Part shown: one piece after another, positions 1,757 through 6,612 of the stretch
Layout of the letters: each line of letters starts with the position of its first letter
Numbering within the stretch: position 1 is the stretch's first letter
From: Alphaproteobacteria bacterium
Lineage (GTDB): Bacteria > Pseudomonadota > Alphaproteobacteria > CAAHEQ01 > UBA3637
DNA: 64,000 bases
Direction of reading: 5' to 3'
Assembly (NCBI GenBank): GCA_017466695.1
Contig: JAFTTR010000002.1
Coordinates: 4,604-68,603, forward strand
The notes under the pieces: model-generated
Databases searched by the model: none
What the model saw: only the letters and a program-made list of their open reading frames with translations
What the model was told of the DNA's origin: nothing
Position numbers and translations under genes: made by a program

Positions 1757-1831
1757 GCCACTATGGCTCAGTGGTAGAGCACTCCCTTGGTAAGGGAGGG
1801 GTCGTGAGTCCGATTCTCACTAGTGGCACCA
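1757..1831 (+). tRNA. tRNA-Thr(GGT)
   Basis: Cloverleaf GCCACTA...TAGTGGC-ACCA; anticodon arm CTCCC-TTGGTAA-GGGAG; TTGACA promoter upstream. Confidence 0.97.
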
Positions 1832-1870
1832 TACAAAAACAGCCCTCATTTGAGGGCTGTTTTTTGTATG
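1832..1870 (+). terminator. Intrinsic terminator after tRNA-Thr
   Basis: ACAGCCCTCA-TT-TGAGGGCTGT followed by a T run. Confidence 0.85.
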
Positions 1871-1994
1871 AGTAAAACTTTGAGAAGTGTACTCACGGGG
1901 GCAACGTGAGGCCGGTCACGAAGCGATAGCGAAGTGGATGCCGAAAGGCAGTCCCGAGTGAAACGAGTGGATAAGCGAAGCGAACATTCGAACG

Positions 1995-2113
1995 AGTGGC
2001 ACCATGTTTTAAAGCCCTCTTTTAAACGAGGGCTTTTTCCTTTGTTTGCAAGCGTTTTGCTGAGTCCGATAGTGATGAGTCCAAAAAACGCCCAAAATCA
2101 CAAATTATCGGAC
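1995..2113 (+). repeat. tRNA-Thr-derived cassette spacer repeat, copy 1
   Basis: AGTGGCACCAT (tRNA 3' end) + AAAGCCCTC..GAGGGCTTT hairpin + ...AATTATCGGAC. Confidence 0.9.
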
Positions 2114-2282
2114 TATTTCAGATCTGATTTTAATTTCATCCATGACTTTTGACATTTTAATATCCTTTCATTTGTTTTTGGATATTGTTTAGAATGTGTA
2201 AAGCAATGAATCTCTACTAAATTATTTTGAAAATTTTTTGTGTGATTGTATAAACTGCCCCAGGGGCAGATTATAAAAAACT

Positions 2283-4085
2283 CTATTTCTTATGTTTAAC
2301 TATCTCATCTAATTTATCAAATAATATCTTAAACTCTAGAAATTCATTTTCTGGGAGTTTTGGTGCAATTTCTGTTGCTAAATTTCTCTTTTGGGCATCA
2401 CGAATAGTTAAAAGTTCAATTGTCTGAACCTGTCCATCACGTACAATAAATTTCCCTTTTTCATCAAGACATACTTCATAGGATAAATCTGAAAGAGAAC
2501 GTAACACATCATCTGAGAAGTAATTTTCAATTTCAAATTTTTTACGTCGTTTATATTGTATTTTATGCTCTGGAACGGGTAGTGTTAATGCATAAATATT
2601 TGCATACCCATCTTTTTTCTTTACATAAAAATCTTTTTCTTTTTGAAAACCAAGCCCATTGGCTTGTCCGATTCCCTCGTGATCCGAATCAAAAAGTCCT
2701 ATAATAATTACTGAATTAGGAATAGTATTTCTTAATTTTCTATTTAAATCTGGAGCTCCCTCCGATTCAATAAAATTATAAGGGCACTGGGTTGCATACA
2801 GCTTCTCCCATGCAGTTTCTAAAAGGATTTTGTCAAACTTCCCTTCTGTTGCGATAATACATTTTGACTTATCTTGAAATTCTTTTATTTTGCGTATATA
2901 TTCTTCTTGTTCTTTTTCTAATTCTTTCCGTTCTTCCCAAAATGATCTCGTTAGTTTTTCTACGTCCTGAGCTTGTTCCACAAAACTTAATTCTTCTGCC
3001 AGTTTTTCGTACTCTGGGGTATTAAACAACAAACGCTGAATTTCTTGAATTGTTTTGATTTTAGTTAACTGCTTATCACCCTTGATATCTAAATAAACTC
3101 TATAGAATTGAACAGAATTTTTCTCTTTTAAAAAGATAAAACAGGGAGAATGTGTGGTAATAAAAATTTGTGCATGCGAACGAAATTTATTATAAAAATC
3201 TCCAGCCAATGCTTGGGCTTTTGAATATTCTAAAGAATTCTCTGGTTCCTCAAATCCCCAGATAAAATTTTGTTTGGCTTTTTTTGATAAATGAGCAATG
3301 AAATAAGCTATATAACTCATTAAAATACCATCTCCGGAAGACATCAAATCAACTTCAACATTTTTAATGTTTTTTGAACGCCTTTTTTCTGGTTTTTTTA
3401 TCTGAGTTTCAACATTGATATGGACAGAATTTAATAAATCATCAATATTTGAAGACAACGAGGCACGAGTTGGTAAGTTAATAAATTTTGAAAAATCCAT
3501 ACTAATATCTTTGGACTTTTGTTCTAGGATATCAGAAAGAGAGGAAACAGCTGTAGAAAATTCTTGTGATCTTTTTGTATCTCTTTGAATTAGGTCTTCA
3601 AATTTTTTAAACAAATTTTGCACAAACTTTCTATCTCGGATAGCCGGAATATATAAAAATTTAATTTTTCCTAAGAATAGAGAAAATTGTCGAATAACAT
3701 TTCCATCATTTTTCTCTATTCTTTTGTTTATTTCTGGATTAGAAGAGTAGTAAGTTGTTATTGGTGCATCACTATTCGCACTAAAGACTCTCTCAACTTT
3801 AAAAGGCTTACTTAATGCGGCTTTTCCCGTTGGTTTAAAATGGATTGTGATTCTAACGTCTCTTTTTCCTCCTGATGAGCCAGTATAGCATTTGTTGTAA
3901 TCCCTTAAATAATTATATGCCTCGTCTAATTGGGTTTGGGAGTTAAAAAAAAGATTTAATGCTTTTAAAATATTAGATTTTCCTGAATTATTTTTTCCAG
4001 AAAATACAGTAATATCCTCTGTCTTTATGGTTTCGTTACCAATGGACCTAAATCTATAAATTTCTACTTTTTCTATTATTTTCAT
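2283..4085 (-). CDS. OLD-family ABC ATPase-TOPRIM nuclease (probable anti-phage defence)
   Basis: Walker A GKNNSGKS, Walker B GFEEPENSL, ITTHSP; C-terminal TOPRIM ATEGKFD, FDSDHEG, EIENYF. Confidence 0.8.
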   Translation of the reverse strand: MKIIEKVEIYRFRSIGNETIKTEDITVFSGKNNSGKSNILKALNLFFNSQTQLDEAYNYLRDYNKCYTGSSGGKRDVRITIHFKPTGKAALSKPFKVERVFSANSDAPITTYYSSNPEINKRIEKNDGNVIRQFSLFLGKIKFLYIPAIRDRKFVQNLFKKFEDLIQRDTKRSQEFSTAVSSLSDILEQKSKDISMDFSKFINLPTRASLSSNIDDLLNSVHINVETQIKKPEKRRSKNIKNVEVDLMSSGDGILMSYIAYFIAHLSKKAKQNFIWGFEEPENSLEYSKAQALAGDFYNKFRSHAQIFITTHSPCFIFLKEKNSVQFYRVYLDIKGDKQLTKIKTIQEIQRLLFNTPEYEKLAEELSFVEQAQDVEKLTRSFWEERKELEKEQEEYIRKIKEFQDKSKCIIATEGKFDKILLETAWEKLYATQCPYNFIESEGAPDLNRKLRNTIPNSVIIIGLFDSDHEGIGQANGLGFQKEKDFYVKKKDGYANIYALTLPVPEHKIQYKRRKKFEIENYFSDDVLRSLSDLSYEVCLDEKGKFIVRDGQVQTIELLTIRDAQKRNLATEIAPKLPENEFLEFKILFDKLDEIVKHKK

Positions 4086-4143
4086 GAGATACCTTTTAAT
4101 GTTACATAGTATCTCATATTTTTATAAAAAAGTATATACTTTT

Positions 4144-4842: not shown

Positions 4843-5568
4843 TTATTCCCCAATAGAAATGCTATAATCGGTTACCCATCCATGTGGCTCTTTCCATTTA
4901 TTTTCTTTCCAAATGCGTCCAAATACTCTAATTGAAATTTTTTTCCCAGAAGTGATTAGTGCTTCAAATTTCTTATATTCTTGTATATCCTCGTATATAG
5001 AAAACCACATAATATGCAAATCTTTTACTATATCTTCTCCATCATATTGATTTGTTAATACTATAGAGCCACTAGATTTTTGAGGATGATATACTGGAAT
5101 ACTATCCAAATTATCATACAGCTTACTTCCTTCAATATTTTTATGAACAAAATGTATCTCGCAACTTGCTTCGCATATCTGTTCTTTATCTGGGAGACAT
5201 CCAAAATGTCCTTCTGCAACTCCATTGAAAAACGCATGTATTTCCTGTTCAGGCGTGTTCTTAATACCTTTATGGTTGGGCATATTTCTTGTTTTAAACT
5301 GAACAGATGATAACGTCCCCTCCATATAAACCCCTGAACTATAATCTAGTTCTTTTAGAAACTCATCCCCTCTATCTTTAGAACTCACTTGTCTTTTTTC
5401 ACAAACTTCTATCAATTTTCCATCTAAATCTTCTTGAACGAGCCTACCTATTTCTTCTCTTTTTTTTACCACATCTGGTAGATTATAATGAATCCAGTAT
5501 AATTGCTTCGATAAATAGCTTAATATACAAATCACTATAATTAATAAAATTATAACTCCCATTTCCAT
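4843..5568 (-). CDS. Hypothetical protein with N-terminal membrane anchor
   Basis: 241-aa ORF with a hydrophobic N-terminus; stop codon lies 2 nt from repeat copy 2. Confidence 0.7.
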   Translation of the reverse strand: MEMGVIILLIIVICILSYLSKQLYWIHYNLPDVVKKREEIGRLVQEDLDGKLIEVCEKRQVSSKDRGDEFLKELDYSSGVYMEGTLSSVQFKTRNMPNHKGIKNTPEQEIHAFFNGVAEGHFGCLPDKEQICEASCEIHFVHKNIEGSKLYDNLDSIPVYHPQKSSGSIVLTNQYDGEDIVKDLHIMWFSIYEDIQEYKKFEALITSGKKISIRVFGRIWKENKWKEPHGWVTDYSISIGE

Positions 5569-5680
5569 TTCCGTTTAGTCCCTTTCATTGACAAAATATC
5601 TACTAGATTTGAAAATAACAAAAAATTTGATAGATTACAACTCTATTTTTTGCAACCTCTCTTTCAATTCTGCTGTAATT

Positions 5681-5821
5681 TGAGTCCGATAATCGCAAAG
5701 CAGCTCGCACCATGTTTTAAAGCCCTCAAGAAAATTAGGGCTTTTACTTTTATTTGCAAGCCATCCTCCGAGTCTGATAGTCCGATTGTTAAAAATCGTT
5801 AAAATTCACTAATTATCGGAC
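5681..5821 (+). repeat. tRNA-Thr-derived cassette spacer repeat, copy 3
   Basis: TGAGTCCGATAATCGCAAAGCAGCTCGCACCAT + hairpin + AATTATCGGAC. Confidence 0.92.
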
Positions 5822-6369
5822 TATTTCAGATCTGATTTTAATTTTGAAAATACATTCTGATCACGATACCGCTTTTGAGAAATAGAATAAATATTCTGTC
5901 TCAAAACACCTTCAAATTTATACCCTGCCTTTATGGCAACATTGGCAGAACGCTGATTTAAAACATCTGTATGTATAACAATTCGGTTAAAATCATTATC
6001 AAACAATTCTTTTTCTATAAGTGCAACTGCTTCACTCATATAGCCTTTTCCAGTATAGTCCGTATCTAACCAATAGCCGATTTCTGCACGTTTATGTTGC
6101 CATGCTACGTTTATTACACTAATCAAACCGATGAATTTTTTTCCCATATATATTTCATATACAAATTGGGCATTATTGTCCCAATCAACATTGACTTTTT
6201 CTAAAAATTTCAAAATATTCTCTGGGGAGTGTGTTTCCTCTACCCAACCAAGCCAAGGGGAAAATACATCTCTACATTTATCAATGGTTGTATATATCCG
6301 TTCAGCTGTTTCCACATTAAATGTTGCTCTCTTTAATGCTATACGCTCGCTCAGTATGTTTTCACGCAT
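5821..6369 (-). CDS. GNAT acetyltransferase, RimJ/RimL type
   Basis: AEIGYWL, YTGKGYMSEA, NQRSANVA, FEGVLRQ; GGAGG RBS before ATG 6369. Confidence 0.9.
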   Translation of the reverse strand: MRENILSERIALKRATFNVETAERIYTTIDKCRDVFSPWLGWVEETHSPENILKFLEKVNVDWDNNAQFVYEIYMGKKFIGLISVINVAWQHKRAEIGYWLDTDYTGKGYMSEAVALIEKELFDNDFNRIVIHTDVLNQRSANVAIKAGYKFEGVLRQNIYSISQKRYRDQNVFSKLKSDLK

Positions 6370-6455
6370 GAATACTTCCTCCCAAAACCTCTTTAAGTTT
6401 AGCAAAAATTTGAATAGATTACAACTGTATTTTTTCCAATTTTTCTGTAATAATG

Positions 6456-6516
6456 GTCCGATAATCGCAAAGCAGCCCGCACCATACAAAAAACAGGTGA
6501 AAAAGGACTCACGGGG
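6456..6516 (+). repeat. Terminal partial spacer repeat (attR-like copy of tRNA-Thr end and flank)
   Basis: GTCCGATAATCGCAAAGCAGCCCGCACCATACAAAAAACAG matches tRNA end + flank GCACCATACAAAAACAG; then GGACTCACGGGGG, similar to ~1890. Confidence 0.88.
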
Positions 6517-6612
6517 GAAACATAATAAAATTAATTATACTATTCATATTGACTATACTAATCTTTTCGGTATATTATCCAATAGGATTAAATATATTTA
6601 GTATATCACCAA

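Follow-up and report, generated by a model that had tools for sequence, protein, structure and literature searches.

A 64,000-nucleotide (nt) stretch from an uncultured alphaproteobacterium (assembly GCA_017466695.1, contig JAFTTR010000002.1, positions 4,604 to 68,603), which we refer to in its entirety as the window, carries three small gene-bearing units stacked behind the gene for tRNA-Thr(GGT). We read this locus, with a probability of about 0.72, as three integrase-less mobile gene cassettes arrayed at the 3' (CCA) end of the tRNA gene. The units measure 0.8-2.7 kb and are bordered by four related junctions, R1 to R4, all of which share with the tRNA a 7-bp core, GCACCAT, that corresponds to the final GCACCA of the tRNA (1826-1831) plus T1832. 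Starting from the tRNA, the order of parts is tRNA, unit E, core-P', cassette 1, P-core-P', cassette 2, P-core-P', cassette 3, P-core and flank, where P and P' are the conserved arms to the left and right of the core. R1 therefore resembles an attL attachment site, R2 and R3 resemble attP sites and R4 resembles an attR site, which fits the serial conservative integration of circles that carry P-core-P'. The flank that follows R4 repeats the beginning of the sequence found 3' of the tRNA.

An array of repeats behind tRNA-Thr

An earlier interpretation made from the letters alone (hereafter the sequence-only reading) had proposed that tRNA-Thr is followed by four related repeats, and ARAGORN, Rfam and nhmmer agree on this arrangement. 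The repeat copies match each other with nhmmer E-values ranging from 1e-51 (self) to 1e-7. Several finer observations made in that reading also hold. The motif GTCCGATAAT (4704-4713) is perfectly inverted in ATTATCGGAC (4831-4840), and R3 shows this relation as well. Stop codons abut the latter motif, with the 241-amino-acid (aa) open reading frame (ORF) ending at 4843 and the GNAT ORF ending at 5821, where it overlaps the last C of the motif. A promoter-side block is shared between 5616-5662 and 6400-6446, the tRNA-type flank ACAAAAAACAG is restored after R4, and the four cassette ORFs of the window all lie on the minus strand, antisense to the tRNA.

Other parts of the earlier description require revision. 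The repeats had been described as built from the T-arm of the tRNA, but what they share with it is about 10 nt (GAGTCCGAT) and GCACCA, whereas the intervening 16 nt do not match the tRNA, which has 11 nt in this place. The repeats themselves exist, but their extent had been drawn too short, since the conserved P arm begins about 65 nt further to the left and takes in the promoter block. Finally, the gap between the tRNA and R1 is occupied by the 173-nt unit E, which was missing from the earlier layout. The coordinates of all parts are collected in Table 1.

The composite junction

The junction is a composite of about 210 nt, in which a P arm of about 95 nt stands to the left of the core GCACCAT and a P' arm of about 118 nt stands to its right. 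P comprises a promoter-like block, then GAGTCCGATAAT, then 16 nt closing in GCACCA. P' comprises a terminator hairpin facing in the direction of the tRNA, a TTTGCAAGC-like stretch, one to three GTCCGAT-type motifs and the inverted ATTATCGGAC. The dimensions of this composite are well preserved, with 143-146 nt from GAGTCCGAT to ATTATCGGAC in all 18 full copies measured and with P in register in 43 of 48 copies. Across genera, P and P' are 75-90% alike, whereas the cassette interiors are unrelated.

Identity between tRNA and junction extends over exactly GCACCAT for both Thr and Phe tRNAs. Tyrosine recombinases usually have an overlap region of 7 bp, and GCACCAT plausibly serves as such a region. 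When the DNA is folded, the inverted 10-mers pair with each other or with an inner direct copy; otherwise only the inner hairpin forms and nothing else is consistently palindromic, so the junction is not attC-like.

The promoter in P is predicted to face outward. A scan for promoter-like sites is uninformative on this point, returning 28 sites versus 22.4 expected; the same scan flagged the terminators of R1 (2011-2036) and R2 (4739-4764), as well as one minus-strand promoter-like site inside the P arm of R3. Rfam searches of window positions 1-9000 at E <= 1 yielded the tRNA plus two chance matches only, and searches of three array loci (L066, L046 and L050) at gathering scores yielded tRNAs only, with neither the junction nor unit E matching any family.

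On the minus strand, P resembles the tail of a protein (window 4658-4732, 5638-5712 and 6422-6484), with a conserved stop at the conserved left border of the arm. Variation among copies falls mostly at the third codon position (column entropy of 0.85, 0.57 and 1.07 by codon position), and the P arm of a sister array described below retains the residue pattern with different DNA. The frame is broken by stops or frame breaks in about 10 of the 48 copies. In a six-frame search of the 80 genomes surveyed below for a longer gene ending in this way, no open frame exceeded 130 aa, and a profile search of 5.8 billion proteins, with 8000 candidates scored, returned three small ORFs of 77-91 aa. Pfam searches of the P peptide at E <= 10 found no integrase similarity and no family match. 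An att repeat located inside a recombinase gene has a reported precedent in Dehalococcoides islands (PMC3146451). In the present case, the lack of a full-length gene or a Pfam match, together with the broken copies, does not support the notion that P is the tail of an integrase.

Unit E opens with a terminator and a conserved hairpin, continues with an apparent 5' half of the tRNA-Thr T-arm and an insert of 50-90 nt, and closes in the 3' strand of the T-stem and acceptor. The unit is kept after tRNA-Thr in five other loci (L037, L039, L040, L042 and L044). It is also found between cassettes in L046 and L050, and in that position it resembles a gene-less unit. Where the window has only a truncated start of a second unit E (6486-6520), L039 has a full one. 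The idea that unit E is a structured RNA is not supported, as RNAalifold, applied to 10 copies, yielded the 5' hairpin only (7 pairs, 1 compensatory). A GC-rich module of about 75 nt with GNRA-like hairpin loops, which is also present inside unit E, takes the place of distal P' sequence in several cassettes.

Distribution among relatives

We surveyed 80 genomes of the family, representing 16 genera and including 54 genomes of good quality. All are metagenome-assembled genomes (MAGs), which may miss plasmids and phages and in which arrays often lie at contig ends, and counts across kin are not independent. The junction is present in 40 of the 80 genomes (27 of the 54 of good quality) and in seven of the 16 genera. 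An exact degenerate P-core pattern was found in 24 stretches among 185,579 species genomes, all of them titled as uncultured Alphaproteobacteria or Pseudomonadota MAGs and originating from rumen, caecum or human gut. Metagenomes gave nine further stretches with this pattern, of which five were mapped; all nine are ordinary arrays.

Among 35 fetched loci, the array stands at tRNA-Thr(GGT) in 19, at tRNA-Gly(CCC) and tRNA-Phe(GAA) in two each and at tRNA-Thr(CGT) in one, with no tRNA within the stretch in the remaining 11, which are often located at a contig end. Wherever P' touches a tRNA (Thr, Phe and Gly; three tRNAs), it begins directly after CCA. At the other end, terminator hairpins that are unrelated in sequence come after the last P-core and resemble native tRNA flanks that have been displaced. 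Both observations locate the exchange at the CCA end.

Cassette turnover and probable movement between tRNAs

Near-identical cassettes are found at different tRNAs and in different genera. The GNAT cassette of the window is 99.1% identical over 545 nt to cassettes in a genome of the same genus (G018, locus L037) and in a genome of another genus (G073, locus L053). It is the third cassette at tRNA-Thr in the window's genome (G000), the sole cassette at tRNA-Thr in G018 and the first cassette at tRNA-Phe in G073. The P arm of R4 in the window lacks 12 nt in frame, a deletion that the L053 copy shares. Two further genera have in common a different cassette, carrying a 491-aa ORF, at 94% identity.

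Cassettes also turn over at the same site. Behind a nearly identical tRNA-E segment, the window and L037 carry different numbers of cassettes, and gene content is not the same in all relatives. The stacking of small cassettes at a tRNA by a non-integron system, as put forward in the sequence-only reading, is supported by the recurrence of this build in 40 of the 80 family genomes and by the presence of a cassette at another tRNA.

Replacement of cargo may also occur within a cassette. Positions 2083-2136 are 89% identical to 5791-5844, and this similarity takes in a 23-nt remnant of the 3' end of a GNAT gene directly after R1. Given this remnant, cassette 1 appears to have once carried a GNAT gene, which was swapped for a two-gene defence module within the same P'/P shell.

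Two contigs from an unrelated sheep-gut run carry joints that bear on movement, each weakly. One contig, with a short side of 39 nt at a likeness of 90, joins 1864 to 7793 in an empty-site-like manner; a strain about 96% similar may lack unit E, the entire array and the acyltransferase gene at 6613-7728. The other, with a short side of 23 nt at the same likeness, joins 1825 (the tRNA end) to 4727 (the P' of R2) across seven shared letters.

Cassette cargo

We mapped 48 distinct cassettes after dropping two duplicate intervals, and counted ORFs of at least 80 aa. Cassette lengths range from 563 to 4129 nt (n = 48). The earlier view that these are single-gene cassettes is borne out by 37 of the 48, which contain one ORF; the other 11 contain two to five. 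Orientation relative to the tRNA is only antisense in 36 cassettes, only sense in about 10 and mixed in two.

Pfam searches with 62 cassette ORFs gave eight matches to GNAT, three to DUF2157 and two each to DUF805, AAA_21 and GDYXXLXY, along with single matches that include radical SAM, methyltransferase, glycosyltransferase, ABC ATPase, MBOAT/AlgX and LD-carboxypeptidase families. PADLOC reported MADS, viperin-like and AriA/GajA-like matches among the cassettes. In the window, the 600-aa ATPase of cassette 1 has PADLOC matches to AriA (1e-20), Old, GajA and ATPase-Toprim and is likely a defence gene. Together with its 161-aa partner (2283-4629), it probably constitutes a two-gene anti-phage module that travels as one cassette.

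Recombinase genes are not part of this cargo as far as our searches reach. A phmmer search with the four tyrosine and three serine recombinases of the window's genome produced no match among the ORFs of the 48 cassettes, and of the 59 Pfam families detected in cassettes, the 25 commonest include no recombinase family.

A second array type and candidate recombinases

The sequence-only reading had noted the absence of a recombinase from the window. This absence extends to the whole of the window's contig, where neither the tyrosine nor the serine recombinase domain (PF00589 and PF00239, respectively) was matched. Elsewhere in the same genome, on contig C6 (locus L066), we found a sister array of at least three cassettes with the same build. 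Its core, GTACCAA, equals the end of tRNA-Leu(CAA) plus one base, and its P' arms carry GTTCGATAA and inverted TTATCGAAC. This sister type (type 2, the arrays with core GCACCAT being type 1) is present in 37 of the 80 genomes, and one or the other type is present in 51 of the 80.

The window's genome encodes four tyrosine recombinases, two of which are XerC/XerD-sized, one 583 aa and one 198 aa. The 198-aa protein is 89-96% identical across genera, so this recombinase has itself been recently mobile. Its gene lies beside an array end or the CCA end of a tRNA in eight of the nine loci that form a group of 89-100% identity. In three loci the downstream arm abuts a displaced tRNA fragment followed by P' (two at type 2 arrays and one, in G102, at a type 1 array). 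In three others it faces the CCA end of a complete tRNA (Thr-CGT in one and Thr-TGT in another, while the third tRNA runs off the stretch and has no ARAGORN call), and in two it faces the P-core end of a type 2 array. These contexts indicate that the 198-aa element uses targets like those of the cassettes and is equally loose in its choice of tRNA. Arrays are present in 18 of the 19 genomes that have a full-length 198-aa gene versus 33 of the 61 others (Fisher p = 0.0009, uncorrected for kinship).

Elements of the 583-aa type are also found at these sites. In L061 a tRNA-Thr fragment immediately before P' forms the end of such an element (original coordinates 6270-6560), and in L048, L054 and L058 arm-like repeats of this type (GCTACAG-like) follow the last P-core. 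Pseudo-tRNA ends are therefore targets for ordinary island integrases as well. Serine recombinases are encoded in 69 of the 80 genomes, with few near arrays, at roughly chance level.

The 198-aa family is the best single candidate for the acting enzyme, although a tentative one. It is also possible that the enzyme is encoded on plasmid or phage DNA that was not binned. That the arrays are inert, with no present enzyme, we regard as doubtful. The 583-aa family and XerC/XerD are both unlikely to act, and the remaining odds fall to a serine recombinase or another enzyme.

Table 1. Positions of array parts in the window and of related features at other loci (coordinates refer to the window unless a locus or contig is named).
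Feature	Locus	Position	Strand	Details
tRNA-Thr(GGT)	window	1757-1831	+	anchor; ARAGORN; Rfam tRNA, 69.4 bits
Core GCACCAT	window	1826-1832, 1999-2005, 4727-4733, 5707-5713, 6479-6485		first copy is the tRNA end
Unit E	window	1832-2004	+	173 nt; tRNA terminator hairpin, GC-rich segment, 5' hairpin ACTCACG..CGTGAG, pseudo-tRNA 3' end GAGTGGCACCA
R1	window	~1999-2117	+	attL-like, P' only (from 2005); hairpin 2011-2036, GAGTCCGATAGT, and ~70 nt after the hairpin ATTATCGGAC at 2104-2113
Remnant of GNAT gene 3' end	window	2114-2136	-	23 nt; inside cassette 1, directly after R1
Cassette 1, gene 1	window	2283-4085	-	600-aa OLD/Gabija/PARIS-like ATPase (AAA_15, AAA_21; Pfam)
Cassette 1, gene 2	window	4144-4629	-	161 aa, without family match
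R2	window	4638-4845	+	full junction; P to 4726, core 4727-4733, P' to 4845
Cassette 2 gene	window	4843-5568	-	241 aa, N-terminal hydrophobic stretch, without family match
R3	window	5618-5826	+	full junction; P, core 5707-5713, P'
Cassette 3 gene	window	5821-6372	-	GNAT acetyltransferase (Pfam Acetyltransf_3, 3e-19)
R4	window	6390-6485	+	attR-like, P arm and core (6479-6485)
Truncated start of second unit E	window	6486-6520	+	ACAAAAAACAG ... GGACTCACGGGGGAAAC; displaced original flank
Sister array	L066 (G000 contig C6)	2036-8960
198-aa tyrosine recombinase gene	L066	2036-2632		little beyond the catalytic domain
tRNA-Leu(CAA) 3'-end fragment	L066	~2908-2925		17 nt; ~290 nt downstream of the 198-aa gene
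Sister-array junctions, core GTACCAA	L066	2924-3039, 4362-4568, 6086-6255		final P at 8833-8926
583-aa integrase	L067 (G000 contig C22)	5012-7726		beside tRNA-Leu(CAA)
Small serine recombinase, ~200 aa	L031	8238-8828		~0.7 kb from array end
Small serine recombinase, ~200 aa	G009 contig C18	55689-56111		~0.2 kb from array end
GC-rich module, GNRA-like loops	L031	16731-16830		in place of distal P'
GC-rich module, GNRA-like loops	L046	3466-3560
GC-rich module, GNRA-like loops	L047	7500-7560
GC-rich module, GNRA-like loops	L059
GC-rich module, GNRA-like loops	L063

A proposed mechanism and its competitors

In the mechanism that we propose, a circular cassette would carry the composite site P-GCACCAT-P', and a tyrosine-type site-specific recombinase acting in trans would exchange strands within the 7-bp core. 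The core of the incoming cassette would be matched either by the tRNA end or by the pseudo-tRNA end of a resident cassette. Repeated insertion would then generate tRNA-core-P' (attL) at the near end, P-core-P' between cassettes and P-core followed by the original terminator (attR) at the far end. The hairpin in P' would re-terminate whatever stands upstream. Because every cassette would bring a new pseudo-tRNA end, the attachment site would be regenerated with each insertion. Overall, we regard the locus as a variant of site-specific integration at tRNA genes, one whose behaviour is that of a cassette array and whose outcome is integron-like. A more ambitious version of this proposal is a second cassette system, independent of integrons, in which docking is self-regenerating, each cassette has its own promoter and terminator, the 198-aa recombinase acts in trans and the site types are tuned to Thr and Leu tRNAs. 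We advance this version only tentatively.

Several findings weigh against a mobile cassette array of this kind. On its left, the GNAT segment of 99% identity stops about 65 nt inside P' and not at the core, which suggests that the arrays are also shaped by homologous exchange between similar junctions. Excised circles, split reads and recombination products were sought in assembled contigs only and none was seen there, and the attP-like P-core pattern occurs in 0 stretches of viral contigs. Most arrays have no recombinase inside or adjoining them. The 33 array-bearing genomes counted above lack a full-length 198-aa gene, and in at least 10 genomes with type 1 arrays only two tyrosine recombinases, both XerC/XerD-sized, are present. 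Moreover, the arms of the 198-aa element have no nhmmer match to P or P' at E <= 1e-3, and its link to the cassettes is therefore by position and co-occurrence only.

Some of these observations would also be made if integrase-bearing islands had accreted in tandem at tRNA-Thr, had since lost their integrases and now moved by homologous recombination through the junctions, an explanation that we consider improbable. The identity edge inside P' of the shared GNAT cassette, a hybrid terminator at the first junction of L037, the many array genomes with only XerC/XerD-sized tyrosine recombinases and the lack of an integrase in any of the 48 cassettes are all consistent with such decay, and two kinds of integrase-bearing islands do insert at the same sites. 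However, it would be odd for decay to leave zero integrase remnants among 48 units. The similarity of P and P' across genera and their fixed spacing, next to interiors that are unrelated, argue for selection on the junction. The same cassette stands at tRNA-Thr and at tRNA-Phe with P' exactly after CCA, an outcome that homologous exchange alone cannot yield.

Recombination by the host XerC/XerD proteins, with the GTCCGATAAT and ATTATCGGAC motifs serving as Xer half-sites, seems quite unlikely. Xer-dependent parallels do exist, among them the IMEX elements (integrative mobile elements exploiting Xer) and the dif-flanked modules of Acinetobacter plasmids. XerC/XerD-sized proteins are the sole tyrosine recombinases found in at least 10 array genomes, and the inverted motifs end in ..GATAA and TTATC.., which we take to be a loose resemblance to the inner ends of Xer arms. 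However, three short dif-like patterns have no match in the array, and this coarse test revealed no 11-6-11 site. The junctions with the tRNA and with the native flank locate the exchange at GCACCAT, which lies about 25 nt from one motif and about 100 nt from the other, and the motif in the left arm of the sister array does not copy the one in its right arm.

A dispersed repeat of the MITE (miniature inverted-repeat transposable element) or REP (repetitive extragenic palindromic) kind, flanking genes by chance, could account for a 145-nt unit that has inverted repeats of 10 nt at its ends. This explanation is very improbable, since in the whole 1.6-Mb assembly the repeat is confined to window positions 1995-6516 (counting matches better than an 18-nt chance word) and is not scattered over the genome, the copies in relatives always cluster at tRNA ends, and the incomplete copies that begin and end the array complement each other as halves. 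An interpretation as a true integron array whose attC sites have diverged has next to no chance of being correct, even though the cassettes are mostly single-ORF and share one orientation, stop codons lie against the repeat and GNAT genes are common cargo, because a genome search with TIGR02249 (IntI) gave 0 matches over cut-off (best 72.7 versus 265 bits), the window's contig has no tyrosine recombinase, only the 10-nt ends and the inner hairpin are palindromic, the borders lie at the tRNA CCA end and the junction ends, by reading them, are GTCCGATAAT and ATTATCGGAC rather than RYYYAAC and GTTRRRY, as had been pointed out from the letters.

Relation to known systems

The arrays resemble those of integrons in that the cassettes are small, mostly single-gene and mostly co-oriented, carry unrelated accessory cargo, are bordered by a conserved element of about 60-150 nt that resembles a recombination site and are common to distant hosts. 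They differ from integrons in several respects. There is neither IntI nor any recombinase beside the array, and the anchor is the CCA end of a tRNA instead of attI. The junction is an attP-like composite with a 7-bp core equal to the tRNA end, and not a folded attC with R and L boxes. Each cassette also seems to bring a promoter-like block and a terminator.

The closest mechanistic kin is the accretion of tandem islands at tRNA or tmRNA genes. Examples are the tandem islands at ssrA in Dehalococcoides (PMC3146451) and the tycheposon-shaped islands in Prochlorococcus (bioRxiv 10.1101/2020.12.28.424599). As these reports describe such islands, insertion is site-specific at the 3' part of the gene, newcomers push older units outward, 3'-end repeats mark the borders, and integrase-less remnants and cargo modules occur, all of which is similar to the arrays described here. 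By the same accounts the island border is a tRNA repeat of 16-20 bp alone, whereas here it is a conserved composite of about 210 nt. In addition, the present units are only 0.56-4.1 kb in length and 0 of 48 have an integration module. Their pseudo-tRNA end has a fixed sequence, distinct from that of the tRNA, and regenerates the target, and two parallel site types exist in one genome.

Cis-mobilizable elements (CIMEs), known from accretion-mobilization in streptococcal integrative and conjugative elements, are bounded by att sites, have no recombinase and depend on an element at the same site. The cassettes are similar in being att-bounded units that encode no recombinase and would need one from another element. 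In contrast to CIMEs, they form whole arrays with a junction conserved across the family and with at least two site types (Thr and Leu), and the integrase-bearing elements at the same sites (198-aa and 583-aa) have different arms, with no nhmmer match to P or P'.

A limited check of the literature found no description of such a system, which is not proof of its absence. To our knowledge, integrons are the textbook platform, and essentially the only general one, for stockpiling single-gene cassettes. In this uncultured, small-genome lineage of gut and rumen, the same outcome is apparently reached through tRNA-targeted recombination, with small swappable units that carry defence, acetyltransferase and surface-modification genes. 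The conserved junction is a ready probe for cassette cargo in gut metagenomes. If the cassettes move, they would represent a convergent cassette system with a compact attP/attB pair, in which a 7-bp core at the tRNA end forms a self-regenerating docking site, and they would explain how these reduced genomes have a flexible gene pool.

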